Positions 1,564 to 57,250 of a stretch of 57,250 nucleotides of DNA are shown in pieces. This DNA is from Bifidobacterium breve (GTDB taxonomy: Bacteria; Acidobacteriota; Vicinamibacteria; Vicinamibacterales; CAVVIG01): contig CALQBJ020000001.1 of NCBI GenBank assembly GCA_943328785.2, positions 1-57,250 on the forward strand, in the 5' to 3' direction. The stretch's first letter is position 1; every line of letters starts with the position of its first letter. The position numbers and the translations under genes were made by a program. The notes under the pieces were generated by a model that saw nothing but the letters and a program-made list of their open reading frames with translations, ran no database searches and was not told the origin of the DNA.

Positions 1564-1589
1564 GGTTTCGCGATTTACTATATCAACGA

Positions 1590-2417: not shown

Positions 2418-2435
2418 GCGCGACTGGCTCGCGTC

Positions 2436-5295: not shown

Positions 5296-5296
5296 G

Positions 5297-6724: not shown

Positions 6725-6798
6725 CTTTTCCGACGAAGCTGCGATTCCTGGCGTTGACCGGACAGCCCGGCCAACGCATGCGCTGCCGAGCGTTCGAC

Positions 6799-8139
<1,341 letters not shown>

Positions 8140-8270
8140 GCGAAGGCCCTGCCGCGGAAGACACCCATGACATCGAGGGACAAACCAGCCAACGTCCTTC
8201 GGAACCCGCGATGGGCACCGGCCAGCCCGATCCTCCAGAACTCCCGATGTCGTGTGTGTGGAATAGGCCT

Positions 8271-9542: not shown

Positions 9543-9687
9543 GTGGATGACTCACTGCGGAACGGGTTGACGGCGCCAGGCGCGAACCGAAGAACGCACC
9601 GCAAAGCATTGACAACAAAGGAATTACTGTCTAGGACCAAAATATAACACGCCCCCGGCGCTTCGGGCAAGGGCAGCACCGCTACCG

Positions 9688-10833
9688 GTGACTGAACTGG
9701 ACAGCCGGAGTAAGATCACCGCAGTCTCGGAAGTAGTTCAGAACGTGGGAGATACCGTGTCCTCGCCCTCCAATCTAGCCGAACTCGATCTGGCCGACCT
9801 CGAGTCGGCCTTCGCCGCCCGCAGTGTCGAACGCTTCCGGGCCCGGCAAGTGTTTGCCTGGATCTACAAACGCGGGGTCACGGACATCGAGGCGATGACC
9901 GACCTCCCACGCGATCTGAGGGCGGCACTCCTCGCCGACTTCACGATTGCCACGCCGCAGGTCGCATCGCACGAGCGCTCGTCGGACGGGACCGAAAAGT
10001 TTCTCCTCAAGCTCGCCGACGGGAAGCACATCGAGTCGGTCTTCATTCCTGACACGCCGGCCATGACCTTCTGCATCTCCACCCAAGTGGGGTGCGCGAT
10101 GGCCTGCGCGTTCTGTCTCACGGGCAAGATGGGGCTGGTGCGCAACCTGACAGCGGGCGAGATTGCGGGGCAGGTGCGCGTGCTGGCCGGTGCCCTCGAG
10201 CTGCGCGACAAAGCCTTCAACATCGTGCTGATGGGCATGGGAGAGCCCCTGCACAACTACGACGCGGTGATGAAGGCGATGAGCATCCTGTGCGATACGC
10301 ACGGCTTCCACCTGCCGCCGCGCCGGGTCACGCTCTCCACGGTCGGCCTGCTGCCGGCGCTCGAGAAACTGGGACGTGAAGAGTTGATGCCGAATCTCGC
10401 CATCTCCCTGCACGCGCCGACCGATGCACAGCGCGGCGAACTCGTGCCGATCAACCGGAAATATGGCGTGGCCGACATCATTGCGGCCTGCAAGCAGTTC
10501 CCCGTCCGCAGACGCAGCCGCATCACGTTTGAGTACGTGATGCTTGCGGGCGTCAACGACTCCGCCGACGACGCCCGCAAGCTCGCCAGACTGCTGGCCG
10601 GCGTGAAAGCAAAGGTGAACCTCATTCCGCTGAACGCGGCGGCCGGCATCCCCTTCGAGCGGCCGGCGGACGACGTCGTGGACCGCTTTGCCAGGGTCCT
10701 GGCGGAGCAGGATGTCACGGTGTCGGTGCGGAAGAGCCGTGGACGGGACATCCGCGCGGCCTGTGGCCAGTTGATCGTGGAAGGGCCGGAGCACTCGCCC
10801 GCGCAGAAACTGGCCACGCTCGCGTTCGACTGA
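9688..10833 (+). CDS. rlmN: 23S rRNA/tRNA adenine-C2 methyltransferase (radical SAM)
   Basis: 'FRARQVFAWIY', radical-SAM 'CAMACAFC', 'GMGEPL', and the C-terminal catalytic Cys context 'DIRAACGQL'. The true start may be slightly downstream. Confidence 0.9.
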   Translation: MTELDSRSKITAVSEVVQNVGDTVSSPSNLAELDLADLESAFAARSVERFRARQVFAWIYKRGVTDIEAMTDLPRDLRAALLADFTIATPQVASHERSSDGTEKFLLKLADGKHIESVFIPDTPAMTFCISTQVGCAMACAFCLTGKMGLVRNLTAGEIAGQVRVLAGALELRDKAFNIVLMGMGEPLHNYDAVMKAMSILCDTHGFHLPPRRVTLSTVGLLPALEKLGREELMPNLAISLHAPTDAQRGELVPINRKYGVADIIAACKQFPVRRRSRITFEYVMLAGVNDSADDARKLARLLAGVKAKVNLIPLNAAAGIPFERPADDVVDRFARVLAEQDVTVSVRKSRGRDIRAACGQLIVEGPEHSPAQKLATLAFD

Positions 10834-10861
10834 CGCGGCCACCGGTCTGGCTCGTGCGGCG

Positions 10862-13126: not shown

Positions 13127-13743
13127 TTGCCCAACTCGAAATTCAGCGGCGCCGGCGGCCCGGCTGAAACCCTCACGGTGGCTCGAACGGACTTTGCGCG
13201 TTCATGCCACGCAATGACCTCGTACTGGCCCGGCGCCACGTCCGGAATCAGGAAGTGCCCGTCCTTGTCGCTCACGGCGAAGTAGGGCGTTTCCGTGACG
13301 ATGACGTATGCCGACATCTCCGCGTGCACGTTGCACAGGAGCGTGATGATGCCGGGGGTATCGAACGTCCGGTTGCGGCTCGATCCGAGCGGATACGACC
13401 CCAGATCGAAGTTGTCGGCCTTGGTCGGCGAGAACACGTTGTGCCGCACTTCGTCGCTGTTGGGGAAGGCGACGCGTGTGCCGGCGAGCACCGCAATCAC
13501 GTGTGGCTGGAACGCCAGGTTCCGCTGGTCCACATTGACGGCCGCTGCGGGCGGAGTGAACGTCTTCCCGGGAATCTTCGCGAGGTAGATCACCGCATCG
13601 CGATAGTCGCGAGCGCGGGCAATGGTAACGCGCCCCTCGATGCCGTCCGCGAACGCGAGGGCCGGGCACAACACCAGCGCCACTGCCGCGAAGGCACGTC
13701 GCGACCCGAACAGGGGAGACACGGTGGCAGCGGTCCAGTTCAT
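13123..13743 (-). CDS. Secreted cupredoxin-like protein with C-terminal Ig/CarboxypepD_reg-like domain
   Basis: Signal peptide. Candidate type-1 Cu ligands are 'HNVF' His plus 'CNVHAEM' (C-x2-H-x2-M spacing, as in amicyanin). C-terminal 'DKDGHFLIPDVAPGQYEVIAWHE' is a beta-sandwich-like motif. Confidence 0.7.
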   Translation of the reverse strand: MNWTAATVSPLFGSRRAFAAVALVLCPALAFADGIEGRVTIARARDYRDAVIYLAKIPGKTFTPPAAAVNVDQRNLAFQPHVIAVLAGTRVAFPNSDEVRHNVFSPTKADNFDLGSYPLGSSRNRTFDTPGIITLLCNVHAEMSAYVIVTETPYFAVSDKDGHFLIPDVAPGQYEVIAWHERAKSVRATVRVSAGPPAPLNFELGK

Positions 13744-13751
13744 CGTCGTGC

Positions 13752-15041
13752 CTAGAACAGGACTTCCAGCCGGACGACTCCGTCATTGGCGTTGACCCGG
13801 GCACCTGACGCCGAACGCGCGTCGCTGTAGAAGCGGCCTTCCGCCAGCACACGCACGTTCGCACGCACCAGCAGGCTCAGCGAGGGTACAAGCACCAGCA
13901 CGTTCTGCCGGTCGGAGAACGTCGTCTTCTCCATGCGCACCGTGGGCATCACCCAGGGCAGCAGCAGATAGTCGGCCTGGACCATCGACGCCCGCGCCGT
14001 GACCGTGCGCGACGCGCTGCCGAGCAGTTCATCGGTGCCACGGGCATGGGCGCCGAACACATTGAGCTTGCCGAACCAGACGTCGGCCTTGACGCCGGTC
14101 CGGGTGAAGCGATCTTCGATGACGCCGGTGATGGTGGGCTGTGCCCGGCCGGTGTACGAGAACGCCCCGAGCGCGAACGAGCGCTCCGTCATGGACGCGC
14201 CGGAGCCCGCGGACGAGTCACCGCGCGGTCCCACCACGCCGAGGCCGGAGACCTTGTACGACACCGCCCCGTAGTAGTCCTTGAAGTTGTTGTTCTCGGC
14301 CCGTCCGGCCGTCCCCTGGACGACACCGACGGCATACTCGAGTCCCCCGTGGTCATGCGGGCCGGTCACGCCTCCCCACGCTTCGATGCCGGCATCCCTG
14401 TCCCGTAGCCCGAACGCGCCGGTGACCGGCCGGAAGTCCGAGACGTTGAGCGCCAGCGAGCCCGCCTTCTTGAAGGTGTTCGAGAACGGTTCCGCGCGGG
14501 TCTCGATCCGGCCGACCTTCAACATAAGCGGATTGCGCCCAGGCCTGTCTGGCGACAACCGGAACTGCACGTAGGCCCGGTCGATGGACACGGTGCCGGC
14601 CGCCCCGGAAATGAAGATGTTGCCGAAGAACGAAATGCCCGCGCCCTCCGAGCCGGCGAAGTAGACGTTCACCCCGCTGGGGAAGTTGAAGTTGAGCTTC
14701 ACGGCGTTCGCGGGTTGCAGACCGGCTTCCGACGAGACACGCATCGCAATCGGCGGGAGACCGGGAATCGACCCCGGCCACACGGCCTTCGGCCACAACT
14801 GCTTCCATGCTGGTGCGCCGAGTGCCGTGTCGGGCGTCGTGACGAGCTTCTCTTCACCGAGCGGAATGCGGTAGCCGTTGTTGCGGAAGGCGATGCCGAA
14901 CGCGTTCAGCTTCGGTTCCACCACGTGGCAGGTCGTGCACGCCGTCTGGTAACGGCGCGCAAAGACGGGAATGGCCAGACTCGGAGCTGCCAGCCCGAGC
15001 ACGAACCCGATAGCGAGGCAGGCGCGAAGCGTGTTCTTCAT
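13752..15041 (-). CDS. Outer-membrane beta-barrel protein with N-terminal CxxCH motif
   Basis: Start taken at MKNTLRACLAIGFVLGLAAPSLA (signal peptide); the ORF extends to 15161. 'FARRYQTACTTCHVVEPKLNAFG' contains CTTCH. The remainder is Gly/aromatic-rich alternating strands ending 'VVRLEVLF'. Confidence 0.65.
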   Translation of the reverse strand: MKNTLRACLAIGFVLGLAAPSLAIPVFARRYQTACTTCHVVEPKLNAFGIAFRNNGYRIPLGEEKLVTTPDTALGAPAWKQLWPKAVWPGSIPGLPPIAMRVSSEAGLQPANAVKLNFNFPSGVNVYFAGSEGAGISFFGNIFISGAAGTVSIDRAYVQFRLSPDRPGRNPLMLKVGRIETRAEPFSNTFKKAGSLALNVSDFRPVTGAFGLRDRDAGIEAWGGVTGPHDHGGLEYAVGVVQGTAGRAENNNFKDYYGAVSYKVSGLGVVGPRGDSSAGSGASMTERSFALGAFSYTGRAQPTITGVIEDRFTRTGVKADVWFGKLNVFGAHARGTDELLGSASRTVTARASMVQADYLLLPWVMPTVRMEKTTFSDRQNVLVLVPSLSLLVRANVRVLAEGRFYSDARSASGARVNANDGVVRLEVLF

Positions 15042-15141
15042 CAGATAGTCGTCCCGAATCCCTAATCGGCAGACGGACGACGACCTGTGATGCACACCGG
15101 CCCGGCACGTGCACGGGAGGGAAAGCCAAGGCGGGGGAACG

Positions 15142-16464
15142 TCAATCGATGACGGTACCACAGACGGTGGGGGAGGTCTCGGTCAACTGAACGCGCACCC
15201 ACTCATTCCGGTGATGGCCTGGTGGGATGCGGACCTTCAGGTAGTTGCCGGTGACGGCCAGCGTGCCGTCTTCGAGCGTCAGCGCCCGGTGCACTGTGCC
15301 ACGCTGCGACTCGAGGAATCGCCGCGTCAGGCGCGCGCCGATTTCGCGCAACTGGCGTCCCCGCTCTTTCACCACGATGCCAGCGGGCCGATCCGCCATC
15401 CTGGACGCGGCCGTTCCGGGCCTGTCGGAGTAGGGGAAGACGTGCAGGTGGGTCAGCGGCGACGCCTCGAGGTACCGCACCAGTTGCTCGAAGTCGTCGT
15501 CGGATTCGCCTGGAAAGCCGACGATCAGATCGGAGCCGATGGATGCCTCGGGGATGTCGCGCCGGATCCTCTCAACCAGACGTCCGTAGTACGCCACGTC
15601 GTACGGCCGCCGCATGGCCGCCAGCATGCGCGGGCTGGCGTGCTGGAGCGGCAGATGGAAGTGCGGCGCAAAGCAGTTCGAGTCGCGCACCAGCTCGACG
15701 ACGCGATCGGAGCAGTCCATCGGCTCGAGAGAACTGAGTCGGAAGAGGACGCGGGGCGATTCGCCCCCGCGCGCGTTGCCATAGGCGTGGCGCAGGGCGG
15801 TCAGCAGATCTGGCAAGGTGGCCGGCGACTGCAGGTCGCGTCCGTACGACCCCAGATGGACACCGGTCAGGGCCACTTCCCTGAAGCCGGCCGCGACGAT
15901 GCGCGACACCTCGGCGAGCACCTGCTCGATTGGCACGCTGCGCGGGGCGCCTCGCGTCTCGGGAATGATGCAGTAAGTGCAGGGTTCGGCGCAGCCGGTC
16001 TGCACCCGCAGCGTGAACGCCGTCCGTCCCGCCACGCCTGGCTCGACCGTGGCGCCGCAGCCACCGTCACCATCGCCGAACCGTTCAGCGGTGGTGAGGG
16101 CGCCGAACCGGGCGTCCTCGCTGGCCAGAGCGCGGACGAACGACAGCACCTGCGGTTTGTTGTCGTTGCAGACGACACGCGCCACATTCGGCAGCGCCGC
16201 AACCTCGGCGGGCTCGCGAGTGGCGTAGCACCCGGTGACCACGATACGTGCAGCGGGATTGAGGCGGGCGATCCGGCGTATGGTCTGGCGTCCGCCCTGG
16301 TCCGCAGTCGCCGTCACCGAGCAGGTGTTGACCACGACGACATCCGCCGCCTCCGCAGGAGCCGGCTCCGCACCGGCCGCCAGGAACTGTTCCTCGAACC
16401 CGAGTGAGTCGGACTGATTGACGCGGCAGCCGAAGGTGACGACGGCGTACTTCACCGGGGGCAT
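15142..16464 (-). CDS. mtaB: MiaB/MtaB-family tRNA methylthiotransferase (MtaB-like)
   Basis: UPF0004 N-domain 'VVTFGCRVNQSDS', radical-SAM 'CAEPCTYC' and a TRAM-like C-terminus. Confidence 0.82.
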   Translation of the reverse strand: MPPVKYAVVTFGCRVNQSDSLGFEEQFLAAGAEPAPAEAADVVVVNTCSVTATADQGGRQTIRRIARLNPAARIVVTGCYATREPAEVAALPNVARVVCNDNKPQVLSFVRALASEDARFGALTTAERFGDGDGGCGATVEPGVAGRTAFTLRVQTGCAEPCTYCIIPETRGAPRSVPIEQVLAEVSRIVAAGFREVALTGVHLGSYGRDLQSPATLPDLLTALRHAYGNARGGESPRVLFRLSSLEPMDCSDRVVELVRDSNCFAPHFHLPLQHASPRMLAAMRRPYDVAYYGRLVERIRRDIPEASIGSDLIVGFPGESDDDFEQLVRYLEASPLTHLHVFPYSDRPGTAASRMADRPAGIVVKERGRQLREIGARLTRRFLESQRGTVHRALTLEDGTLAVTGNYLKVRIPPGHHRNEWVRVQLTETSPTVCGTVID

Positions 16465-37884: not shown

Positions 37885-37908
37885 CGCGCGGACGCGCACG
37901 TCCGCGCG
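37885..37908 (+). terminator. Perfect GC-rich hairpin CGCGCGGACG-CGCA-CGTCCGCGCG after gpmA (no U-tract)
   Basis: 10-bp stem and 4-nt loop read directly. It sits between gpmA and the channel gene. Confidence 0.35.
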
Positions 37909-37939
37909 GCGCAGCCTTCCCTCGAGGACCCGCTGCTCG

Positions 37940-39664
37940 ATGAGGTCATACATTGTCTATGTGCTGGGGATCGTTGCGCTCGTCATTCTGACGAGCGCAA
38001 CCGGTTTCTACGCGGCCGAAATCGGCACCAACCAGAACCTCGACAGCTACGGCGACGCCCTCTGGTGGGCGATCGTCACTGTCACCACCGTCGGCTACGG
38101 CGACATCTTCCCTGTCACCGTTGCCGGCCGCCTGGTGGGCGCCTTGCTGATGTTCGCCGGCATCGGTGCGCTTGGCGTGTTCACCGCCTCCATCGCCGCC
38201 TACCTCATCAAGTTCGATCGCCTCGACGCCCTCCGGGTCAGGGGCATGCACGGCCACGTGGTGATCTGCGGCCTCGGCTCGACCGGTGCGCTGCTGGCCC
38301 AGGCGTTCCAGCGCGACGGCTACACGGTGCTGGCCATCGAGAAAGCCGAGGACAACTCACGCATCGGCGCAGCCCGCGAGGCGGGTGCCGTGGTGCTGAT
38401 AGGGGATGCCGCGCGGACCGAGGTATTGCGCCGGGCGCGGGTCGACCGTGCCGCGCACATCGTGATCGTCACCGGCGCCGATGCGACCAACGTGGAGATT
38501 GCCGCCGCCGCGCGAGCCCTGGTGCTCGACTCGACGGCCAGCGTGTCGTGCTCGGCGCAGATCGAAGACCCGGAACTCTGGTACGCCCTGCGTAGTTGGG
38601 ACGTCGGCACGCAGGACCGCGTACGGCTCGCGTTCTTCAATGTGGCCGAACTCGGCGCCCGCGCCCTGCTCGCCCGCTACTCCCCGTTCGCGGGAGGGAC
38701 CGACGCGCCCCGCACTCCGCCTCGCGTCCTCATCGTCGGTTCCGGTGCGCTCGCACAGCACCTGATCGGGCACATGGTGCGGCAGTGGCAGGACGTGGAC
38801 GGCGATGCCAAGCCGCCGTTGCCGATCGCCCTCGTCGATGCCGACGTCGACCGCGTTAGGGAGGATCTGTATCACCGGAACCCCGAACTGCGCACGCTCG
38901 CCGCGATCTCGGCGCATGCGATGGACCTGCGGTCGACGACCTTCCAGCGCGGTGCGTTCCTGTTCGACGATGCGGGCCACTGCGCGGTGACCCACGCTTA
39001 CGTCTGCGTCGACGAGGAAGGGCTGGCAATCTCCACCGCGCTGCTGCTGCTGAATCACCTGCGGCAGTACGGTGTGCACGTGATGGTGCGGACGAACCGC
39101 GCAGCGGGACTGGCAGCCCTACTGCGCGCCGTCGGCAATGAGGGGGCACGAGGGGCGTCGCACCTGCACGTCTTCAGCCTGCTCGAGCAGGCCTGCAGCC
39201 CGGAGTTCGTACTGCGCGGCACCAACGAGGTGCTGGCGCGAGCGCTGCACCAGGACTATCTGGCACAGGCGTCCAGAAGCCAGAGCCCATCGGCCGTTCC
39301 GTGGGATGAGTTGGCGCTCGATCTCAAGGAATCGAATCGACGGCAGGCGGACCACATCGCGACGAAGCTCGAAGTGGTGCACTGCCACATCGTGCCGCTC
39401 ACCGCGCTCGAAGGCGATGCGTTCACCTTTGCTCCGGCCGAGGTGGAGCAACTGGCCGAGATGGAGCACGAGCGCTGGGTGGCCGAACGCCGAGCGCAGG
39501 GCTGGAAGCGCGGACCTCGCGACCCGGCACTGAAGACCAATCCCAGCCTTGTTTCATGGGCCGACCTCGATGAATCGGCTCGCGACATCAACAGGAGTTC
39601 CGTGCGCCGACTGCCGTTCTTCCTGAATCGCGCGGGCTTCACCGCACACCGTTACAAAGCATGA
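37940..39664 (+). CDS. 2-TM K+ channel fused to two RCK/TrkA-N domains and a C-terminal RyR domain
   Basis: Selectivity filter 'TVGYGD' (38087-38104) between two hydrophobic helices. Rossmann motifs 'VVICGLGSTG' and 'VLIVGSGALA'. RyR-like 'LAEMEHERWVAERRAQGWKRGPRDPALKTNPSLVSWADLDESARDINRSSVRRLPFFL'. Confidence 0.85.
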   Translation: MRSYIVYVLGIVALVILTSATGFYAAEIGTNQNLDSYGDALWWAIVTVTTVGYGDIFPVTVAGRLVGALLMFAGIGALGVFTASIAAYLIKFDRLDALRVRGMHGHVVICGLGSTGALLAQAFQRDGYTVLAIEKAEDNSRIGAAREAGAVVLIGDAARTEVLRRARVDRAAHIVIVTGADATNVEIAAAARALVLDSTASVSCSAQIEDPELWYALRSWDVGTQDRVRLAFFNVAELGARALLARYSPFAGGTDAPRTPPRVLIVGSGALAQHLIGHMVRQWQDVDGDAKPPLPIALVDADVDRVREDLYHRNPELRTLAAISAHAMDLRSTTFQRGAFLFDDAGHCAVTHAYVCVDEEGLAISTALLLLNHLRQYGVHVMVRTNRAAGLAALLRAVGNEGARGASHLHVFSLLEQACSPEFVLRGTNEVLARALHQDYLAQASRSQSPSAVPWDELALDLKESNRRQADHIATKLEVVHCHIVPLTALEGDAFTFAPAEVEQLAEMEHERWVAERRAQGWKRGPRDPALKTNPSLVSWADLDESARDINRSSVRRLPFFLNRAGFTAHRYKA

Positions 39665-41559
39665 ACAGCGAACATTCGTCGTCGCCACACACCGCGCACG
39701 GCCACCGGCGTCCCAAGCGAGTCCGGCACCCAGGCACCGGCCAGATGCCTGGGCCGCTACCGCTGATCGTCGGCGTCACCGGCCATCGTGATCTGCGCCC
39801 CGAGGACACGCACGCGCTCGAAGGACTGGTGCGACGCCTCATCGAAGACGTGAAGCACGCGCATCCGCACACGCCGCTGCTGCTGCTGTCGCCACTCGCG
39901 GAAGGCAGCGACCGCCTGGTCGCGCGCGTCGCCCTCGAACTCGGTGTCCGCCTCGTGGTGCCACTGCCATTGCCGCTCGACCTTTACGAGCAGGACTTCG
40001 CCAGCGAGGCGTCGCTGGCCGAGTTCCGCCGCCTGCTCGGCCGCGCGGAAAGTTCGTACGTGCTGCCGCTGATGCGCGGCAACACCGACCAGGGAATCAG
40101 GCAGTACGGCGATCAGCGGAACCGTCAGTACGCCCAGGTCGGTGCGCTCATCGCCCGGCAGAGCCAGGTGTTCCTCGCCCTCTGGGACGGCGCGAGCGAT
40201 GCGGGCCACGACAAGGTGGGCGGCACGGCGGAAGTGGTCCGGTTCAGGCTCGAGGGCGTGCCCCCGAGCTACGAGCCGACGTCGGCCAGCCCGCTCAGCT
40301 ATTCCAGCAGCGGACGGGTGTATCACCTCGTGACGCCGCGCATCGGCCAGCCGGTGCCGCCGAAGGCGCTGGCGTCGGAGCTGCTCCTGCCCACCCGTCA
40401 GACCGCGGCGTCGTTCGATGAACGCGAGGGGTGGATGGACCGGTTCAACGAGGACGCGCTGCACTTCGACGCGCAGTTGGCACCGGCTCGCGTCACCAGC
40501 ACGTCGTACCTGCTGAACGTCAAGGAGCACGAGGTCGATGCGGCGGCGCGCTCGCTGCCCGCCTCGGCGCAGATGACCATGGAGCGCTACGCCGTCGCGG
40601 ACACCCTGGCGCTGCACTTCGCCACCTACACCAGGGCGGCGTCGCGGAAGCTGTTCCTGTGGGTGTTCGTGTCGGCGCTGTTCTTCAACCTGTTCCACTC
40701 GCTGCCGCACCCGCATATCTCAGAACATCCTTCGCTCGGTGAACGGCTGATCGCGGTTCCATGGCTCCTCCTGCTCTTCCTCGCCTCGTCCATCGTCGCC
40801 AGCTACTGGATCCATCGCGAGGCGACCGAGCAGGACTACCAGAACAAGCACCAGGATTACCGGGCGCTGGCCGAGGCGCTGCGCATCCAGTTCTTCTGGC
40901 AGGTGGCCGGCGTGCAGGGCGACGTCGCGGATCACTACCTGCGCAAGCAGCGCGGGGCGCTGGAGTGGATTCGCAACGCGCTCCGGGCCTGGGATACCGA
41001 GTCGTCGGCCAACGAGGCGCACGAAGCGGTGGAGGGCCTCCTGCCAGAGCGGCTGGACTACGTCGCCCGGAACTGGGTCTTCGAGCAGCGCAACTACTTC
41101 GCGTCGAAGGCGCGCCGTGAGCAGGCGACGCTCGAGGACGAAGAGAAGAAGATCGAGTGGCTGGTGCGGATCAGCGTGGCGATGGCGATGCTGCTCGCCG
41201 TGGTGCTGACGGTGCCACTCCTCGTGCCCATTCACGCACTCGAAGCGGTGAAGCACTGGGTCGAGGAACCGCTGACGCACGGGATCATCATGGTCGTTAT
41301 CGTGACCCTGGCGGTCGTCGCCGGCCTGCGTCACGGCTACAACCAGCAGATGGCCCACTCAGAGCATGCGAAACAGTTCGGGCGCATGAGCGAGCTGTTC
41401 GACGCGGCGCAGACGCACCTGTCGGCGCAACTGGACGCCGGGAAGCTCGAGGATGGGGCGGCGCTGCTACGCGAACTGGGTCAGGAAGCGCTGGAGGAGA
41501 ACGGCGACTGGGTACTGCTGCACCGCGAGCGTCCGCTCGAAGTGCCGCACTCGGGATGA
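39661..41559 (+). CDS. SLOG/LOG-like Rossmannoid N-domain fused to a 4-TM (SLATT-like) membrane region
   Basis: ATGA overlap with the channel stop. 'LIVGVTGHRD', 'SPLAEGSDRLVA' and 'LWDG...KVGGTAEVV' (compare LOG PGGxGTxxE). Four hydrophobic helices (LFLWVFVSALFF, LIAVPWLLLLFLASSIV, WLVRISVAMAMLLAVVLTV, GIIMVVIVTLAVVAGL). The domain call is inference. Confidence 0.6.
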   Translation: MNSEHSSSPHTAHGHRRPKRVRHPGTGQMPGPLPLIVGVTGHRDLRPEDTHALEGLVRRLIEDVKHAHPHTPLLLLSPLAEGSDRLVARVALELGVRLVVPLPLPLDLYEQDFASEASLAEFRRLLGRAESSYVLPLMRGNTDQGIRQYGDQRNRQYAQVGALIARQSQVFLALWDGASDAGHDKVGGTAEVVRFRLEGVPPSYEPTSASPLSYSSSGRVYHLVTPRIGQPVPPKALASELLLPTRQTAASFDEREGWMDRFNEDALHFDAQLAPARVTSTSYLLNVKEHEVDAAARSLPASAQMTMERYAVADTLALHFATYTRAASRKLFLWVFVSALFFNLFHSLPHPHISEHPSLGERLIAVPWLLLLFLASSIVASYWIHREATEQDYQNKHQDYRALAEALRIQFFWQVAGVQGDVADHYLRKQRGALEWIRNALRAWDTESSANEAHEAVEGLLPERLDYVARNWVFEQRNYFASKARREQATLEDEEKKIEWLVRISVAMAMLLAVVLTVPLLVPIHALEAVKHWVEEPLTHGIIMVVIVTLAVVAGLRHGYNQQMAHSEHAKQFGRMSELFDAAQTHLSAQLDAGKLEDGAALLRELGQEALEENGDWVLLHRERPLEVPHSG

Positions 41560-41592
41560 GCGGCGCGGGCGACGGCGCCCAGACTGGCGGCG

Positions 41593-42987
41593 CTAGGCCA
41601 ACGGGGTCTGCGCCGCGGCCAGCCACGCCGCCGTCACTTCCGACGCCGTGGCAAACCGGCTGTTCGCGTCGGCCAGGATGCAGCGCATGATCATCGCCGC
41701 CGCCTCGGTCCCGAGGTCGGGACGCTCCGTCGCCACGTCCGGCGGCTTGGTCATGAGCATGCGGCCAAGCAGTTGCGGGAACGACTCCGCCGGGTAGGGC
41801 GGCCGTCCCGTGGCCATGTAGTACATCAGTGCACCGATCGTGAAGACGTCGGCACGCTGGTCGGCCGGATTCCCCATCAGCAGTTCCGGCGCAACGTACG
41901 ACAACTCGTGCGGCGCCGCCTGCCCCCGCAAGGTCGCCTCGTTCATTGTCGACAGCAGATCCTGCATGCCTCCGATGCCGGCGCTCGAGATGGCGAGGTG
42001 CTCTTTCTTGCCCGGCTCCCGCACCACACGAATGATTTCCGGATGCAGCCCCGAGATGAAGCCGCCGTGCACGTGCACCGCCTCGGTCGCCTCGCTCAGT
42101 TCGCGCACGAACTGCGTCAGCTTCGGGATGGCGAGGCCGCCGTCCAGGCGAACGAGTTCGCCGAGGCTCACGCCTGCCAGCAGGTCCGTCACCACGTACA
42201 TCATGTCCGTCGTCTCGCCGAAATCGCGGACGTGGATGATGTTCGGGTGCATCACCTGCAGGGCGCGCGCCTCACGCAGGAACCTGGCACGAATGGCCTC
42301 CTTGTTGTCCTTGTCGGTCGGCCGGTAGACGCGCACCGCGACCGGACTGCCGAGCATTCGGTGTTCGCCGGCATAGACGACGCTGCCGAAGCGACCGATC
42401 GCGACCACCTTCGTGAGGTCGTAGTTGCCCACCACCAGCGGCGATTCCTTGGACGGTTCGAGCGAGGCCGGCGGAGGCGGCGGCGCGGCGGCCGCGGCTG
42501 GCGAGGGAGCGAGGGGCGCTGGCGCGTCGACGCCGTCTGGGATCAGGTCGCCCTCGATGCCCGGCCGCTTCAGGTGCGCGTTGACGCCCTGGACGAGACG
42601 CTCGAGGTGCTGGTCGATCGGCTGGAGCGTCGCGTCGAACCAGTGCTGCGAGCTGATGAAGTACTCCATCGTCCGGGTCGGCATCACGTTCTCGATGCGG
42701 ACGGGCATGAGCGACAGCCCCTTGTGGACGGCGCGCTCGACCTCGCGCTGCACCTGGACCGACTTGTTGGAGGCTTCGCTGAAGACCAGCAGCATGACGC
42801 GCGAGCCTTCGATGGCGTCGATGATCGACTCGGCCCACGGCACGCCAGGCACGATGTCGCGGGGGGCGATCCAGCACGGAATGCCGCGCTGCTCGAGACC
42901 CGCGCAGATCGCGTTCGAGACAACCGCGTCTTTCGACGCATAACTGATGAAGACCACGTGCGCCATGACGAAAGCGCTGTCGATCAT
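41593..42987 (-). CDS. TIR domain - pseudokinase fusion protein
   Basis: TIR: 'VVFISYASKD...PCWIAPRDIVPG..WAESIIDAIEGSRVMLLVFSEASNKSVQVQREVE'. Kinase-like fold with degenerate motifs: 'VAVRVY' (K to R), 'ISGLHPEII' in place of HRDLKPEN, 'ISSAG' in place of DFG, with 'YVAPE' retained. Confidence 0.8.
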   Translation of the reverse strand: MIDSAFVMAHVVFISYASKDAVVSNAICAGLEQRGIPCWIAPRDIVPGVPWAESIIDAIEGSRVMLLVFSEASNKSVQVQREVERAVHKGLSLMPVRIENVMPTRTMEYFISSQHWFDATLQPIDQHLERLVQGVNAHLKRPGIEGDLIPDGVDAPAPLAPSPAAAAAPPPPPASLEPSKESPLVVGNYDLTKVVAIGRFGSVVYAGEHRMLGSPVAVRVYRPTDKDNKEAIRARFLREARALQVMHPNIIHVRDFGETTDMMYVVTDLLAGVSLGELVRLDGGLAIPKLTQFVRELSEATEAVHVHGGFISGLHPEIIRVVREPGKKEHLAISSAGIGGMQDLLSTMNEATLRGQAAPHELSYVAPELLMGNPADQRADVFTIGALMYYMATGRPPYPAESFPQLLGRMLMTKPPDVATERPDLGTEAAAMIMRCILADANSRFATASEVTAAWLAAAQTPLA

Positions 42988-42994
42988 AGCGCAT

Positions 42995-43035
42995 CGAAAA
43001 CAAAAAAAGGCCGCCGGGGTAAACCCGGCGGCCTT
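42995..43035 (-). terminator. Rho-independent terminator of the glgX/AGE transcript
   Basis: Minus strand reads AAGGCCGCCGGG-TTTAC-CCCGGCGGCCTT followed by TTTTTGTTTTC. 12-bp stem, 31 nt after the stop at 43066. Confidence 0.7.
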
Positions 43036-43065
43036 CTCTCGGTCCTGCGTGCTGCGGGACGGCTG

Positions 43066-45291
43066 TTAGTCGACGAAAGTGAGACTTTCGCCGAATTCGG
43101 TCGCGTTCAGGGCGTCCTTGACCGCCTGGTTCGCTCCGATTACCTGAACGTCCTCATCGGTTCGCAGCTTCTGCTTGCCGAAGATGAGGGCGCGAATCGC
43201 ACCCGGGGTCAGCGTCTTCAGTTCCTTGACGCGGATGATGAGCGTCTCGGGCTGGGCGGCGATGACCTCCTGAAGCTTGGCCTGCAGCGCCTGAACCGCC
43301 ATGTGGTCGGCGTCGCCCGCCAGGGTCAGCGTCGCGACCCCCTTGTCCACTGTGGCGTGTGCGCTGAAGTGTGACAGCCCCTCGGTCGGCGCGATACGCA
43401 CGACGATCTTCACCTGGTCATCAGCCTGCGGGATGGTGACCGTGAGGTTCGCGGCGTCGAAGTCGCTGTATTCCTTGCCGTCGACCGTGACCGACTCGAT
43501 CTTGATGCTGCCCTTCGGCAGCATGTCCGGCGCGACGCGCAGGATGTTGCCCTTGAACGCGCCCGGCTTCGGCTTGAAGTGCAGATCGAGCGGCTGCTTG
43601 GTGATGAGCAGGTTCGTGTAGACCGCCGCGAGGTAGCACAGCTCGAACGAGTGGTAGCCGCTCATCGAGTGGCTGCCCTTGTTGCGTTCGGTGCCGAGCA
43701 GGAACGGCATGCCGTTGGCGAGGACGTTGAAGTAGACGGCCCCCGAATCGTGGTCGAGGAAGAACGCGCTGTAGAACGCCGACGACTCACGCGCCTGCTT
43801 CAGGTACTCCGGCTTCTTCAGCGAACCGTGGAGGATCAGGTACGCCAGGATGCCCTGTTCCTGCTGCCACCACGCCTTGCGGTCGTGGAAGGCGAAGCGG
43901 TGGATCGACTGCCCTTCCGGCAGGGCGCGTTCCACCACGTCGTACCAGCCGCCACGCTGCGGGTCGCCGCCGTGCTTCGGCATGAGGCCGGCGATCTTCT
44001 CGGCGAGCGCCACGTAGCTGTCGTCCTGCTTCGCATTCACCATGCGCATCAGGTTCCAGGCGATCTTGAGGTTGTGTCCGACGACCCCGCGGTTCTGTTG
44101 CCAGCCCCACGTCCGGTCGGCGCTCCAATCCTCGTGGAACTTCTCCTGGACGAACGCGCTGTTCTCGTAGTCCGGGAAGCGCGTGGCGATGGTGGTCGCC
44201 GTGTCGATGAGCATCTCGAGGTGCTCGGGTTCGTTCGTCGCCAGCGCCAGGTTGATCAGGTACGCCGGGGCGTGGTCACCGACCGAATTCCAGTTCTTCT
44301 TCCCGCGGTTGCGACCGAGCGACTCGGCCTTCGGGTCGAAGGTGACCGGGTCAATGTGCGAGAAGTAGCCGCCACCCTCGTAGTCGCGGTAGTAGCGGTT
44401 GAACATGTTCAGGGTGCGGTCGATGTCCTTGCGGATCTTCGGGTCGCCCGTGATGCGGTAGGTCTGCGTCGGGCCGGCCAGCGCGTAGATCTGTTCATAC
44501 GCCGGGATCGCATCCCAGTCGTCACCGAACTCCGACGAGAGCAGCTTGCGCTCGCGGACGGGGGCGCTGGAGGAGCGGCGCATGCCGGGCACGTCGGCCA
44601 TGTCCGAGTTCAGGATCTTCTTGCCCTTCGCCTCGGCGAAGTCGATGGCGTGGTACCAGTAGCAGGTGTCCTCGACCGTGTCGACCGAGCAGAAGTGTTC
44701 GCGCAGGTAGTCGCTGCCCTTTTCGGCCGATTCGAGGAAGCGCTCGTCACCGGTGAGGAGGTAGGCCGAGGCGAAGCCGAAGATCAGGCGCGAGATCGTG
44801 TCGGTCTCCTGGCGGGTCGAATCGATCTTGCGGCCGTACAGGTCGAGCGACGTGCGGTAGTTGCGGTAGTCGACCGGGCCGTCGCCGAACTGGGCGCGGA
44901 AGTAGAAATTGCCCAGTTCCTGAATCTGGCGCACCCAATAGTCGGGCCGTTCGAACACGAACTCCGTCGGGCCGCGGCCGACGAACACGAGGTGCTCCGC
45001 CTCGAGCGCCATCGGCACGTCCGGGTAGAACACGCCGTAGGAGTACAGAAAGCGGCCGACCTGCAGCATGTCGCGCATCTGCCCGGTGCAGTCGATGTAC
45101 GACTCGCCGAGATTGCGCGCCAACTCGCCGTAGCATGAGCCCGAGAAGCGAATCTGGAATTCCCGGCCATCCGACGTGGCGACGCGGAATCCGTTACGGT
45201 CGGCGTCGACGCCGGTGACGTATCCGGCCACGGTGTCCGAGAATGCGAAGCCTAGTCCTGTCGTATTCGAAACCGAGTTCTTGACGTCCAT
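43066..45291 (-). CDS. AGE-superfamily (alpha/alpha)6 epimerase/isomerase-like enzyme with C-terminal STAS domain
   Basis: 'GHNLKIAWNL' and 'WWQQEQGILAYL' are AGE-like. The last ~110 aa ('ATLTLAGDADHMAVQALQAKL...LIIRVKELKTLTPGAIRALIF...VQVIGANQAVKDAL') are STAS-like. Confidence 0.72.
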   Translation of the reverse strand: MDVKNSVSNTTGLGFAFSDTVAGYVTGVDADRNGFRVATSDGREFQIRFSGSCYGELARNLGESYIDCTGQMRDMLQVGRFLYSYGVFYPDVPMALEAEHLVFVGRGPTEFVFERPDYWVRQIQELGNFYFRAQFGDGPVDYRNYRTSLDLYGRKIDSTRQETDTISRLIFGFASAYLLTGDERFLESAEKGSDYLREHFCSVDTVEDTCYWYHAIDFAEAKGKKILNSDMADVPGMRRSSSAPVRERKLLSSEFGDDWDAIPAYEQIYALAGPTQTYRITGDPKIRKDIDRTLNMFNRYYRDYEGGGYFSHIDPVTFDPKAESLGRNRGKKNWNSVGDHAPAYLINLALATNEPEHLEMLIDTATTIATRFPDYENSAFVQEKFHEDWSADRTWGWQQNRGVVGHNLKIAWNLMRMVNAKQDDSYVALAEKIAGLMPKHGGDPQRGGWYDVVERALPEGQSIHRFAFHDRKAWWQQEQGILAYLILHGSLKKPEYLKQARESSAFYSAFFLDHDSGAVYFNVLANGMPFLLGTERNKGSHSMSGYHSFELCYLAAVYTNLLITKQPLDLHFKPKPGAFKGNILRVAPDMLPKGSIKIESVTVDGKEYSDFDAANLTVTIPQADDQVKIVVRIAPTEGLSHFSAHATVDKGVATLTLAGDADHMAVQALQAKLQEVIAAQPETLIIRVKELKTLTPGAIRALIFGKQKLRTDEDVQVIGANQAVKDALNATEFGESLTFVD

Positions 45292-56076: not shown

Positions 56077-56981
56077 TCAGGCGACGGCGCCCTGCTCATA
56101 GTAATGCGCTTCGTGCTCGGCCGGCGGCACGAAGCCGATCGGGCCGAGCAGCCGCCGATGATTGAACCAGTCGACCCAACGGAGCGTGGCGAACTCCACG
56201 GCCTCGAGGCTGGTCCAGCGTTCGCGTTGACGAATCACTTCCGTCTTGTAGAGACCGATGACGAATTCGGCGAGGGCGTTGTCATACGAGTCGCCGCGGC
56301 TGCCCACCGCCTGATCGATGCCCGCATCGATCAGGCGCCCGGTGTGGCGCATGGACAGGTATTGCACGCCCCTGTCGCTGTCATGGATCAGGTCGCCCGT
56401 GTCGTCGTCGCACCGGTCATGAATCGCCTGGTCCAGCGCGTCGAGCACCAAATCGGTGCGCATCGCGTGTTCGCGCGCCAGCCGACGATCCGGCGCGCGA
56501 ACACGTCGATCACCAGCGCGGTGTAGACGAAGCCGTCCGTCGTGTGGACGTAGGTAAAGTCCGACACCCAGCGCTGATTCGGCCGCGTCGCCGTGAAGTT
56601 GCGCGTGACCAGATCGGGCGCCCGGCCGCTGTCGTCGCCGCGGCGCGTCGTGACCACGAAGCCGCCCCCACGGACCACCCCCGACAACCCCAAGTCCGTC
56701 ATCAGCCTGGCGACGGTGCAGCGCGCGGCGAGGATCGCTTCGCGGCGCAACTGGCGCCAGACCTTGTCGACGCCATACACCGCTTCCTGCTCGTGCCAGA
56801 CGCGGTGAATCTCGGGCCGTAGCGCGTCATCGCGCTGCGCCCGGACCGACCGGCGCGTTGGATCGGCCTGCTGCGCTTTGAGGCGCCAATACGTCGACGG
56901 GGCGATCGGTACGTGCGCACAGATCGACTCGACCCCATACGTCTCGCGCTGCGCATCGACGCACGCGACCATCACTTCCAT
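56077..56981 (-). pseudogene. IS3 transposase OrfB (rve/DDE) split by an extra frameshift
   Basis: ORF 56388..56981 ends '...FARRIVGWRANT' and then runs out of frame. ORF 56077..56463 continues 'MRTDLVLDALDQA...HDSDRGVQY...GDSYDNALAE'. An indel near 56465-56480 breaks the usual single OrfB frame. Confidence 0.8.
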
Positions 56982-57250
56982 CGGCGGTCGAGCTCCGCCT
57001 GGGCGAAGAACGCCGCGGCCTTCCGGAGGATGTCATTGGCGCGTTTCAACTCGCGATTCTCGCGCTCCAGCGCCGTGAGACGCTCCCGCTCGCTGGTCGT
57101 CAGGCCCGGGCGCTGGCCCTGATCCCGCTCGGCCTGGCGCACCCAGCGCCGCAGCACCTCCGTCGTACAGGCCAGCTTCTCGCCGATGGACCGAATCGCC
57201 GCCCACTGCGACGGGTACTCGTGGCTGTGCTCCTGCACCATCCGTACGGC
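56972..57250 (-). CDS. IS3 transposase OrfA (N-terminus outside window)
   Basis: '(AVR)MVQEHSHEY...[14 protein letters not shown]...[30 protein letters not shown]'. The reading frame stays open to the window end. Confidence 0.85.

Follow-up and report, generated by a model that had tools for sequence, protein, structure and literature searches.

A putative Thoeris-like TIR signalling module with a RyR-domain K+ channel in a soil Acidobacterium

Introduction

Three neighbouring genes of a soil Acidobacterium, here called A, B and C, encode a K+ channel with a RyR domain, a membrane protein with a SLOG-like domain and a TIR protein, which raises the question of whether they act together in nucleotide signalling. 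Both kinds of partner have been linked to such signals before, since SLOG domains of the YpsA clade were described as cADPR sensors (PMC9503650) and SLATT proteins as permeability effectors regulated by ADPr derivatives (PMC7159879). An earlier reading of the window (the whole stretch of 57,250 nucleotides that was analysed), which was based on the letters alone and is referred to as the sequence-only reading, had proposed an inserted cassette in which a TIR-generated nucleotide gates membrane or ion-flux effectors. From the domain architectures, the folds, the conservation of key residues and the gene linkage across phyla, we conclude that the locus probably encodes a TIR-based module for Thoeris-like nucleotide signalling, in which two membrane proteins are the effectors.

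Results

All three open reading frames were found at the expected coordinates (Table 1), and the Pfam matches as well as the AF2/Foldseek architectures agreed with the three-gene module that the sequence-only reading had described. The coupling of A and B was confirmed as well, as the stop codon of A and the start codon of B overlap in an ATGA (39661-39664).

Table 1 Features of the A-B-C locus and its borders (positions in the window).
Feature	Position	Strand	Description
Hairpin	37887..37910	+	Perfect 10-bp GC stem, CGCGCGGACG-CGCA-CGTCCGCGCG, between gpmA and gene A
Gene A	37940..39664	+	574 aa; 2 TM + pore, tandem RCK1-RCK2, C-terminal RyR Repeat12 (R12)-like domain
K+ selectivity filter TVGYGD	38081..38098	+	aa 48-53 of A
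RCK1/KTN Rossmann domain of A	38249..38635	+	Pfam TrkA_N; intact GLGSTG (GxGxxG) motif
RyR R12-like tandem repeat of A	39200..39652	+	Repeat 1 H437/Y440; repeat 2 H510/W513/R527
Gene B	39661..41559	+	632 aa; SLOG domain, then 4 TM helices (tandem SLATT-like)
YpsA/YAcAr-like SLOG domain of B	39748..40395	+	aa 30-245; alignment, Foldseek, family YAcAr matches
Membrane module of B	40528..41535	+	Two 2-TM units, long amphipathic helices, conserved C-terminal ENGDWVLLHRERPLEVP motif
Gene C	41593..42987	-	464 aa; TIR_2 (aa 12-131) + Pkinase (192-451), Pfam
Pseudokinase domain of C	41608..42435	-	Alignments to PknE and PknB
TIR domain of C	42568..42966	-	Glu82 (codon 42742-42744) at catalytic-Glu position
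Intrinsic terminator	42992..43041	-	-39.4 kcal/mol, z -7.1; stem 43041-43001, U-run to about 42992

A was assigned as a K+ channel with RCK and RyR domains. Pfam matches above the gathering cut-offs were obtained for Ion_trans_2 (aa 12-90), TrkA_N (107-199, E 3.9e-18) and RyR (502-567), the A profile matched RyR1/2/3 (E about 1e-27) and MthK (E 4e-24) in the PDB, and the AF2 model (pLDDT 84) had GsuK bound to NAD or ADP as its top Foldseek match (E 1.3e-12) and also matched human RyR3 848-1055 (E 2e-6). The filter and the RCK motifs are strictly conserved in A-like channels; in RCK1, Glu134 at the end of beta2 forms a dinucleotide-binding signature together with GxGxxG, and C110, G111, G113, G116 and E134 are invariant (alignment A2). 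In the RyR domain, H510, W513 and R527 are retained as counterparts of the ligand residues H129, W132 and K147 of the phage protein RyR Tad, and N534 and N551 occupy the positions of H154 and D171. Asn thus stands at two of the six positions that contact the ligand in RyR Tad, so that ligand binding by A is not assured.

For B, the SLOG-like N-domain and the four TM helices of the sequence-only reading were likewise recovered, although B as a single query had no Pfam, NCBIfam or PADLOC match. The AF2 model (pLDDT 88.5) comprises a Rossmannoid N-domain with YpsA (2nx2) as the top PDB match (Foldseek E 5.9e-5, prob 1.0), followed by DprA, ShosA and LOG; 16 of 28 family members have a weak YAcAr SLOG match, and the SLOG motifs GVTGHRD, LSPLAEGxDRL, WDG and GGT are invariant across the family (alignment A1). 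We therefore confidently assign the modelled N-domain to the SLOG fold. Hydropathy indicated helices at aa 331-349/363-381 (unit 1) and 504-522/538-556 (unit 2). DUF4231/SLATT matches were obtained for 23/28 members, with DUF4231/SLATT_3 on the first 2-TM unit and SLATT_1 on the second, and a paralog of B at another locus (L130) has a SLATT_1 match above the cut-off.

Genes B and C converge, their stop codons lying exactly 33 bp apart, and the true start of C, judging by homologs, is probably Met8 (42966). Compared with PknE and PknB, the VAIK Lys is replaced by Arg (VAVRV), the HRD Asp by Gly (ISG), the catalytic-loop Asn by Ile and the DFG Asp by Ser (SAG). These substitutions mark the kinase domain as a pseudokinase, as had been supposed, and it presumably serves as a sensor or regulatory domain. 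The TIR domain has kept its Glu, and the residue at this catalytic position is invariant in 52/52 TIR domains adjoining B homologs; TIR_2 exceeded the Pfam cut-off in the B partners tested. The TIR domains of the partners in other lineages are 50-58% identical, and their C-terminal domain is swapped for WD40, TPR, NB-ARC/STAND or unknown domains.

Is the locus a mobile defence cassette? The G+C content of the A-B-C block is the same as that of its flanks, and the order glgC-eno-gpmA-A-B-C-AGE-glgX is conserved even in relatives whose proteins are only about 60% identical. The idea of a recently inserted accessory cassette is therefore not supported: the locus is not an island, but syntenic and vertically inherited. 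It sits between carbon-metabolism genes, and no hallmarks of mobile elements were found at it. The proposed bracketing by two hairpins stood only on the left side, where the perfect GC hairpin follows gpmA (-22.9 kcal/mol, z -2.4); it lacks a U tract, which leaves a terminator function putative. The strong terminator on the right serves the minus-strand AGE-like gene (43066-45291) and lies immediately 5' of C and outside the module proper, so that it insulates C from AGE and does not close the block. Defence genes were not recognisable in the flanks, and PADLOC matches were almost absent among the 113 flank proteins taken from 13 loci with B and TIR. In addition, none of the 72,556 plasmids searched carried a B homolog. 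PADLOC, which was run for a known system, recognised neither A nor B, and A was not recognised by NCBIfam either.

This setting could suggest a housekeeping or stress circuit instead of immunity, in which the TIR, SLOG and R12 domains sense or adjust NAD metabolism and K+ homeostasis responds to NAD+ or ADPR, e.g. in starvation, osmotic or redox stress, with the glycogen and glycolysis neighbours linked through physiology. The stable position between gpmA and AGE/glgX across Vicinamibacterales, the flanks free of defence genes here and at the 13 other loci, and the absence of the family from plasmids are in line with such a circuit, as is the binding of NAD+ and ADP by GsuK-type RCK domains (according to PDB titles). 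However, a conserved TIR that is combined with highly variable domains of the sensor type (WD40, TPR, NB-ARC/STAND, pseudokinase) is what conflict systems show (PMC7159879), sequence divergence is faster in A, B and C than in the housekeeping genes around them, the phyletic distribution is patchy over more than 10 phyla, and cell killing is a known function of SLATT effectors. We consider a housekeeping or stress circuit of this kind, for which the sequence-only reading had also left room, quite improbable.

The linkage across genomes bears on the question of whether the genes belong together at all. A TIR gene was present in 42/80 loci of the B family, and in 35 of the 53 whose flanking sequence reached 5 kb or more on each side. 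These genes cluster within about 5 kb of the B homologs, at a density of 0.09-0.12 per kb inside 2 kb and at most 0.02 beyond 5 kb; at about a third of the B loci no TIR was found within 10 kb. B directly follows an A-like gene in L001-4, L006, L009, L036, L046 and L069, and a pore-less form of it in L072. These arrangements span at least four phyla (Acidobacteriota, Verrucomicrobiota, Armatimonadota/Abditibacteriota, an unclassified MAG and a deltaproteobacterium), and 8 or 9 of the 10 A-B loci also carry a TIR gene, whose placement varies between loci (downstream-convergent, upstream-divergent or co-directional). When centred on A, a TIR gene was found in 23/80 loci (0.13 per kb within 500 bp) and SLOG partners in 11/80, including a SLOG-SLATT_1 protein in L130; in L101, SLOG-only genes are translationally coupled to the channel, and in L164 the trio recurs, its SLOG-TM member being a distant paralog and its TIR member a TIR-DUF8082 protein. 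Small proteins that consist of RyR only (about 95-140 aa) are located beside B and TIR in L017, L020, L036, L047, L072 and L080. At some B loci, such small proteins replace the channel.

One objection to a module is that A is an ordinary K+ channel, B its accessory membrane subunit, and C an unrelated stand-alone TIR NADase or signalling pseudokinase that lies beside them by chance. C is indeed on the opposite strand, and its convergent orientation together with the terminator ahead of it, between C and AGE, means that co-regulation with A-B is not evident. Furthermore, L046 has kept A-B while an adjacent TIR gene was lost or never there, and most of the 80 A-like loci have neither a TIR nor a SLOG partner (L165, for instance, has none within 7 kb). 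Against this, TIR genes are enriched beside both the B and the A family in many phyla and in rearranged gene orders, and the trio recurs with divergent members (L036, L069, L072, L101, L164), which makes mere neighbourhood very unlikely. The co-occurrence anticipated by the sequence-only reading was thus found, while the defence-island context was not. Together with the assignment of the B N-domain to a nucleotide-binding type of fold, the co-occurrence supports the interpretation of a TIR signal acting on membrane effectors.

Discussion

Based on the architectures and conserved residues, we infer the following sequence of events. C would be the signal generator, with its dead kinase domain as the sensor or regulatory module; once activated, its TIR domain would use NAD+ to make a signal derived from ADP-ribose, which is probably a cADPR isomer. 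The cytoplasmic YpsA-like SLOG domain of B may receive this signal, upon which the tandem SLATT-type 4-TM module would alter membrane permeability. A would act in parallel as a GsuK-like RCK-gated K+ channel, whose R12 domain may bind the same class of ligand and gate K+ flux, and whose NAD-type RCK1 site could also report NAD+ depletion; the ATGA overlap might set a fixed A:B ratio. The predicted outcome is membrane depolarisation or ion loss leading to growth arrest or abortive infection, i.e. an anti-phage role, and in a milder regime a stress response.

For each link of this interpretation there is support in preprints from 2025-26. TIR and SLATT form type VII Thoeris (ThsB + ThsH), with canonical cADPR as the signal, and type X combines TIR with the ion-channel effector ThsK, its signal being given as unknown (Yirmiya et al., bioRxiv 10.64898/2025.12.03.692087). 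By its description, type VII resembles our locus in that a TIR gene adjoins a SLATT-type membrane protein, so that a TIR product is predicted to act on a membrane-breaching effector. ThsH is, however, annotated as SLATT only, whereas B begins with a YpsA-like SLOG sensor and its membrane part comprises two 2-TM units, the type VII ThsB is short whereas C is a long, sensor-fused TIR_2 protein, and the RyR-K+ channel as a third gene further distinguishes the locus. Type X, again by its description, resembles our locus in pairing a TIR with an ion channel that is presumed to be the effector; the type X TIRs cluster with type II (Macro-associated) ThsB, and our search for a type X example retrieved type II loci only.

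A close counterpart of B is an unvalidated Thoeris candidate, 'SLOG and 4TM' beside TIR, in Table S2 of the same preprint (10.64898/2025.12.03.692087), for which both systems assayed in E. coli are given as showing no defence. These candidates (Streptomyces sp. GKU 895, Ca. Nitrospira nitrosa) have SLOG, four TM helices and an adjoining TIR, a likeness in architecture only; their TIR domains fall into a sequence cluster other than that of C, and no channel or RyR partner is mentioned for them.

Phage RyR-R12 proteins connect the third gene to the same signals, because they bind or cleave 2'/3'cADPR and cADPR, 3'cADPR being bound at 43 nM and 2'cADPR and cADPR being bound as well or hydrolysed (10.64898/2026.05.28.727677; 10.64898/2026.06.04.730250). 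RyDEP (10.64898/2026.05.28.727677) and RyR Tad gp68 (10.64898/2026.06.04.730250) share PF02026 and the R12 fold with A, and both A and the small RyR proteins that adjoin B have kept the His-x-x-Trp and a basic residue with which the ligand is contacted. While the phage proteins are soluble and destroy or sequester the host signal, the RyR domain here is host-encoded, channel-fused or stand-alone, and genomically tied to TIR and SLOG-SLATT genes, which places it on the defence or signalling side and not on that of counter-defence.

The phage proteins also suggest that host RyR domains could be brakes: by sequestering or hydrolysing what the TIR makes, the R12 domain of A and the small RyR proteins of other loci would set an activation threshold or terminate the signal as ring nucleases do for cOA, and B would be the sole killing effector. 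Phage RyDEP acts on 2'/3'cADPR as a glycosidase, and other homologs are sponges with nanomolar affinity; in the stand-alone RyR proteins beside B the residues of RyDEP/RyR Tad are retained, His and Asp of the catalytic dyad among them (Asp in 11/12), and Asp is found at the dyad position in 57 of 94 channel-fused last repeats. In the A protein of the window, however, N551 replaces this Asp and N534 the second His, which argues against catalysis by its R12 domain. Moreover, a sponge fused to a full K+ pore and a double RCK ring is implausible unless ligand binding gates the channel, and the strict conservation of TVGYGD and the RCK motifs also speaks against a brake, so that we regard this alternative as unlikely.

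Returning to the effector role of A, its nearest structural relatives are GsuK, the multi-ligand-gated K+ channel of Geobacter sulfurreducens (PDB 4GX0-4GX5), which has the same pore and tandem RCK ring (TM 0.44-0.65), and MthK, with 24-28% identity over pore and RCK1. Neither has an RyR R12 domain or a known link to TIR or SLOG genes, whereas A has both. In animal ryanodine receptors (R12 and R34 repeats), a cation channel carries a peripheral R12 module as in A, and Asn is found at the RyDEP catalytic-Asp position in both A and RyR1 repeat 1. The pores are unrelated, a 2-TM K+ channel versus a 6-TM Ca2+ release channel, and only the R12 module is common to them. Animal RyRs have long been associated with cADPR.

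The sequence-only reading knew of no described system with these three architectures; taken in pairs they are less unprecedented, as 'SLOG and 4TM' next to TIR is already listed as an unvalidated candidate in the Thoeris preprint. A host RyR-domain K+ channel as an effector of a TIR signalling module, in contrast, appears to be undescribed, and the nucleotide-binding RyR domain that A would contribute to it is of the kind found in animal ryanodine receptors.

Architecture of the three genes

We consider it reasonably likely that A, B and C form a signalling module, of which we infer every functional step, in which a nucleotide signal made by the TIR domain of C acts on the two membrane proteins A and B. 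The three long open reading frames proposed in the sequence-only reading were confirmed and fill positions 37940-42987.

Coordinates of the features in the window and in fetched records carrying homologs.
Record	Feature	Position	Strand	Description
Window	Gene A	37940-39664	+	574 aa; Ion_trans_2 aa 12-90, TrkA_N aa 107-199, RyR aa 502-567 (Pfam, above gathering cut-offs)
Window	Gene B	39661-41559	+	632 aa; ATG within ATGA overlap with the stop codon of A
Window	Gene C	41593-42987	-	464 aa; convergent with B, 33 bp apart; TIR_2 and protein-kinase fold
Window	Strong terminator	42992-43041	-	Ends AGE-like gene; <30 nt upstream of the likely start of C
Window	AGE neighbour	43066-45291	-	741 aa, unusually long
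Window	ALIL pseudoknot (Rfam RF01497)	56898-57014	-	98.5 bits; programmed-frameshift element of IS3-family transposase
L026 (Ignavibacteriota)	K+-channel-like protein	11861-12739		~290 aa; 40 bp downstream of B homolog
L028 (Ignavibacteriota)	K+-channel-like protein	11804-12670		~290 aa; 40 bp downstream of B homolog
L046 (Acidobacteriota relative)	A-B abutting AGE	8268-14062		C absent
L072 (deltaproteobacterium)	A-like homolog	4915-7212		Without TVGYG pore; RCK and RyR kept
L101	Four-gene operon	1038-7531		One strand, 4-bp overlaps
L162	Neighbourhood of RyR and TrkA_N-RyR genes	5886-15872		372-aa RyR protein translationally coupled to pore-less TrkA_N-RyR protein
L172	gp68	12143-12694		RyR Tad phage protein

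The product of A consists, in this order, of a 2-TM K+ pore, RCK1, RCK2 and a tandem RyR-R12 domain. It has all the hallmarks of a GsuK/MthK-type channel, i.e. a TVGYG filter (TVGYGD in A), a 2-TM pore and RCK gating domains, and both those of an R12 domain, i.e. the R12 fold and a Pfam score above the gathering score (PF02026, 46.8 bits where 27.4 are required). A profile built from nine A orthologs matched the R12 and R34 repeats of animal RyR1-3 with an E-value of ~1e-27 and MthK with 4e-24. The closest structure to the AF2 model (pLDDT 84) was GsuK crystallised with NAD or ADP (E 1.3e-12), followed by TrkA rings and MthK, and its C-terminus matched residues 848-1055 of human RyR3 (Foldseek, E 2e-6). 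The GxGxxG...E dinucleotide signature of RCK1 is intact.

Since the B protein of the window alone gave no match in Pfam, NCBIfam or PADLOC, we used family-wide scanning and structure prediction. The candidates scored include more than 1,400 members of the family, which spans more than 10 phyla and at least 544 species genomes, with GVTGHRD, LSPLAEGxDRL, WDG and GGT as invariant motifs. The best PDB match of the AF2 model (pLDDT 88.5, pTM 0.87) was YpsA (2nx2, E 5.9e-5, prob 1.0, TM(target) 0.63), followed by DprA, ShosA and LOG; B thereby has a SLOG fold, a Rossmannoid resembling YpsA, DprA and LOG whose first loop is Gly-rich and which carries a GGT-type motif. YAcAr (PF10686) was matched weakly by 16 of 28 members, in all cases below 28.2 bits and not above the gathering score (best E 7e-5). 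The four hydrophobic helices of B make up two 2-TM units. DUF4231/SLATT was matched weakly by 23 of 28 relatives, with the homolog P0038 above the cut-off (26.3 vs 24.7); matches to SLATT_3 and SLATT_1 within the B family were sub-threshold, with none for the B of the window itself, and the paralog in locus L130 matched SLATT_1 above the cut-off (38.5 bits).

C matches TIR_2 with an E-value of 1.1e-22, and Glu82 sits at the position of the catalytic Glu of TIR NADases (conserved S..S..E), a residue that is invariant in all 52 of 52 TIRs linked to B. Relative to PknE/PknB, the kinase domain carries K->R in VAIK, D->G in HRD, N->I in the catalytic loop and D->S in DFG. As all four catalytic residues are replaced within a preserved kinase fold (Pkinase E 1.5e-20), we conclude that it is a pseudokinase. 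We also considered C as an active defence kinase resembling PD-T4-6, which we rejected because the catalytic residues are missing; the PADLOC kinase-defence matches (E 3.6e-40) span the kinase fold, aa 184-460, only. Homologs of C start with MAHxVFISY, from which we conclude that the true start is probably Met8 (42966). This start would leave fewer than 30 nt between the U-run of the AGE terminator and the start codon, so that expression of C would depend either on a promoter that overlaps the terminator or on read-through transcription.

Genomic setting

The sequence-only reading had described an inserted cassette bracketed by a GC hairpin after gpmA and a terminator at 42995-43035. The hairpin is real but lacks a U tract, and the terminator does not mark the end of the module, since it belongs to the AGE-like gene. 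The 33-bp spacer between B and C was tried as a bidirectional terminator and rejected, as it folds no better than shuffled sequences (z -1.2 and -0.9). An insertion is not borne out either: the G+C content of the module equals that of its flanks, the order glgC-eno-gpmA-A-B-C-AGE-glgX is common to loci L001-L003, and L004 keeps A-B-C-AGE-glgX. Identities within the module are lower than those of the flanks, both in L003 (70% for A, 76% for B and 82% for C vs 85-90%) and in L004 (~60% for all three vs ~74%). From the shared G+C content, the kept gene order and the lower conservation of A, B and C, we conclude by sequence comparison that the module is an old, vertically inherited and faster-evolving resident of this position rather than a recent insertion. 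A search for B homologs among 72,556 plasmids gave no match and thus no evidence of plasmid mobility.

AGE adjoins the module in every Vicinamibacterales relative, and the AGE terminator abuts the start of C. The AGE ortholog in locus L164 combines GlcNAc_2-epim with a weak C-terminal STAS match. In L046, A-B abuts AGE and the nearest TIR domain lies 8.8 kb off, so the generator gene either is not needed at this position or has moved elsewhere. The ALIL pseudoknot shows that the extreme right end of the window, ~14 kb away from the module, carries an IS element.

An enrichment in defence islands, which had been suggested as a check, was not seen. The window flanks are glgC, eno, gpmA, AGE and glgX, and PADLOC gave nearly no matches on 113 flank proteins from 13 loci with B and TIR, a weak negative as PADLOC 2023 covers these phyla poorly. 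Such surroundings would also suit a non-immune NAD/K+ stress circuit, in which a channel with an NAD- or ADP-binding relative such as GsuK would have its place; we regard this circuit as quite improbable.

Linkage of the three gene families

The sequence-only reading had asked whether the families co-occur elsewhere, and indeed they do. Homologs of B with 30-89% identity served as the centres of 80 genomic loci, which we scanned with tblastn, all-against-all clustering and iteratively built HMMs. TIR domains were found in 42 of the 80 loci, and in 35 of the 53 whose flanks both reach 5 kb or more. Within 2 kb of B, the density of TIR domains was 0.09-0.12 per kb, and beyond 5 kb it was at most 0.02 per kb, a fall with distance that serves as an internal control for the linkage. 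The nearest TIRs are 50-58% identical to that of C, with a B of only ~40-45% identity, and the C-terminal halves of B-linked TIR proteins vary between pseudokinase, TPR, WD40, NB-ARC/STAND, a TM segment and unknown domains.

Directly upstream of B, an A-like channel is found in five Acidobacteriota loci (L001-L004 and L046), in L069 and in one locus each from Verrucomicrobiia (L006), Abditibacterium (L009) and Armatimonadota (L036); a pore-less RCK-RyR form takes this place in L072. A TIR gene is also present in 8 or 9 of the 10 loci with an A-like gene upstream of B, positioned convergently downstream, divergently upstream, co-directionally upstream or directly downstream. In L017, L020, L036, L047, L072 and L080, an RyR-only protein of 95-140 aa (Pfam E ~1e-37) replaces the channel beside B and a TIR gene. 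In L072, the genes that follow the pore-less one encode a small RyR protein, a B homolog and a TIR-NPHP3/STAND-WD40 protein of 1834 aa; the RCK-RyR unit can therefore exist without a K+ pore. In the two Ignavibacteriota genomes (L026 and L028), neither RyR nor TIR was detected at the locus; the small K+-channel-like protein beside B hints that B may pair with channels more generally.

We also inspected 80 metagenomic loci centred on A-like genes. A TIR was present in 23 of them, at 0.13 per kb within 500 bp and often directly downstream of the channel, and a B-type SLOG in 11, including the SLOG-SLATT_1 protein of L130. A further version of the trio, once more beside AGE and glgX, occurs in L164, where the SLOG-TM member is a distant paralog (E 3e-12, 35% identity over the SLOG domain) and the TIR is part of a TIR-DUF8082 protein. 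The operon in L101 encodes a STAND-like protein of 901 aa with two RyR repeats at its end, a 195-aa SLOG-only protein, a 591-aa channel-RCK-RyR protein and a 355-aa TIR protein, and would be a good minimal system for experiments. Three further genes lie within 7 kb in L162, coding for ARPP-1, for which an action on ADPr riboses is predicted, for a ClpB-like AAA protein and for a giant TIR-WD40 protein. The coupling seen between A and B thus recurs for the SLOG-only protein and the channel in L101 and for the RyR and RCK-RyR proteins in L162, which suggests a fixed stoichiometry and perhaps a complex.

The families need not be linked. No partner is present in the DNA available for about one third of the B loci and for most A-like loci, L165 has none within 7 kb, and for the 32 B loci that lack both TIR and RyR we found no other conserved partner, only local synteny among close relatives. 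These loci would fit A, B and C being independent neighbours, which we nevertheless consider very improbable, as the pairing is conserved across unrelated genomes.

Ligand residues of the RyR domains

RyR-R12 proteins of phages act on cADPR isomers. RyDEP cleaves 2'/3'cADPR via an H75/D117 dyad, and other homologs are nanomolar sponges (10.64898/2026.05.28.727677). In a second preprint, RyR Tad gp68 binds 3'cADPR at 43 nM and 2'cADPR and cADPR below 1 µM, with H129/W132, K147/H154 and K170/D171 as ligand contacts (10.64898/2026.06.04.730250). Both preprints note the homology to the R12 domain of animal RyRs (10.64898/2026.05.28.727677; 10.64898/2026.06.04.730250).

We aligned gp68 with the repeats of A and the small RyR partners. 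In repeat 2 of A, H510, W513 and R527 correspond to H129, W132 and K147 of gp68, and N534, I550 and N551 stand at the positions of H154, K170 and D171, the last of which is also Asn in repeat 1 of RyR1. Repeat 1 of A has H437 and Y440. The first His is kept in 217 of 219 repeats, and at the last position the last repeats of channel-fused RyR proteins carry Asp in 57 vs Asn in 35 cases. The stand-alone small RyR proteins retain H, W, R/K and H, and Asp in 11 of 12. Judged by these residues, the R12 domain of the window's channel resembles a binder or sensor more than a glycosidase, and the small RyR proteins may act as sponges or hydrolases. The module also suggests that hosts may use small RyR proteins as built-in regulators of TIR signalling. 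That RyR domains in general, including that of A, are signal sinks or off-switches would agree with the phage proteins and with the residues of the small partners; N534 and N551 of A speak against catalysis there, and a sponge fused to a whole K+ pore would make little sense unless binding were coupled to gating, and we hold this alternative to be rather unlikely.

In a phage collection, 187 records carry RyR-domain proteins resembling the small host RyR partner (Salmonella, Pseudomonas, Arthrobacter, Aeromonas, Pectobacterium and others), and two human-gut phage contigs encode proteins 50-56% identical to an entire 95-aa host RyR protein.

Comparison with published systems

Thoeris combines a TIR with a catalytic Glu and an adjacent effector with a signal-binding and a membrane domain, and both have candidate counterparts here, in C and in B and A, respectively. 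Yirmiya et al. catalogued 29 putative Thoeris types, among which the validated type VII consists of a TIR and the SLATT effector ThsH with canonical cADPR as signal, and the validated type X of a TIR and an ion channel with an unknown signal; 'SLOG and 4TM' effectors were listed from Streptomyces and Nitrospira and gave no defence in E. coli (10.64898/2025.12.03.692087). The Aravind laboratory placed the YpsA-clade SLOG among cADPR sensors (PMC9503650), and SLATT was predicted to be a permeability effector regulated by ADPr derivatives that often adjoins TIR (PMC7159879). The parts and their pairwise logic (TIR-SLATT, TIR-SLOG, TIR-channel and RyR-cADPR) are already known or predicted.

In the literature searched, we found no RyR domain described together with SLOG, TIR or a potassium channel. 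No mention of potassium, TrkA or SLOG was found in the RyDEP preprint (10.64898/2026.05.28.727677), and the RyR/ryanodine passages in the gp68 preprint (10.64898/2026.06.04.730250) all concern the phage protein or animal RyRs. The available part of Table S1 of Yirmiya et al. contained neither a TIR of the C type (WIAPRD motif) nor an RyR annotation. For the TIR of the Nitrospira 'SLOG and 4TM' system the best protein match was 64% identical; the homolog P0123 (locus L161) is followed by a UDPGP gene and has no SLOG neighbour. A tblastn search with a type X TIR against plasmids gave 12 records, and the five inspected were all type II (TIR+Macro) or TIR alone. Within this literature, three findings appear to be new: a host K+ channel with an RyR-R12 domain (type X ThsK being compared by description only), the conserved operonic tie of such a channel to a SLOG-tandem-SLATT-like protein and sensor-fused TIRs ('4TM SLOG' effectors likewise being compared by description only), and small host RyR proteins in the same neighbourhoods.

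Proposed mechanism and implications

In our preferred reading, i.e. a TIR-made signal acting on two membrane proteins, the pseudokinase of C would sense a trigger and switch on its TIR, which would produce an ADPR-derived signal. The SLOG domain of B would bind this signal and its tandem SLATT-like module would permeabilise the membrane, and the R12 domain of A would bind the same signal and open or modulate the K+ pore, with RCK1 possibly reading NAD+/ADP in addition. As a consequence, the cell would depolarise and growth would stop.

More tentatively, the channel may be gated through its R12 domain by a cADPR-type nucleotide made by the TIR, in parallel to a putative SLOG-SLATT-like pore, which would constitute a bacterial axis from cADPR to an RyR-domain channel; we regard this as possible. 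Whether ryanodine receptors are a direct target of cADPR, and by what mechanism, has been debated for decades, and we know of no cellular channel shown to use an R12 domain as ligand sensor. The fusion of R12 to a simple GsuK-like K+ channel, tied to TIR and SLOG-SLATT-like genes, makes the question of cADPR and R12 testable. If the channel is gated in this way, it would provide a small, structurally tractable model for the action of cADPR-class ligands on R12, and the R12 module of animal RyRs would descend from a receptor for nucleotide immune signals. The dual-effector, three-gene configuration would join the Thoeris repertoire, which would thereby reach under-sampled soil phyla, i.e. Acidobacteriota, Verrucomicrobiota, Armatimonadota and Ignavibacteriota.
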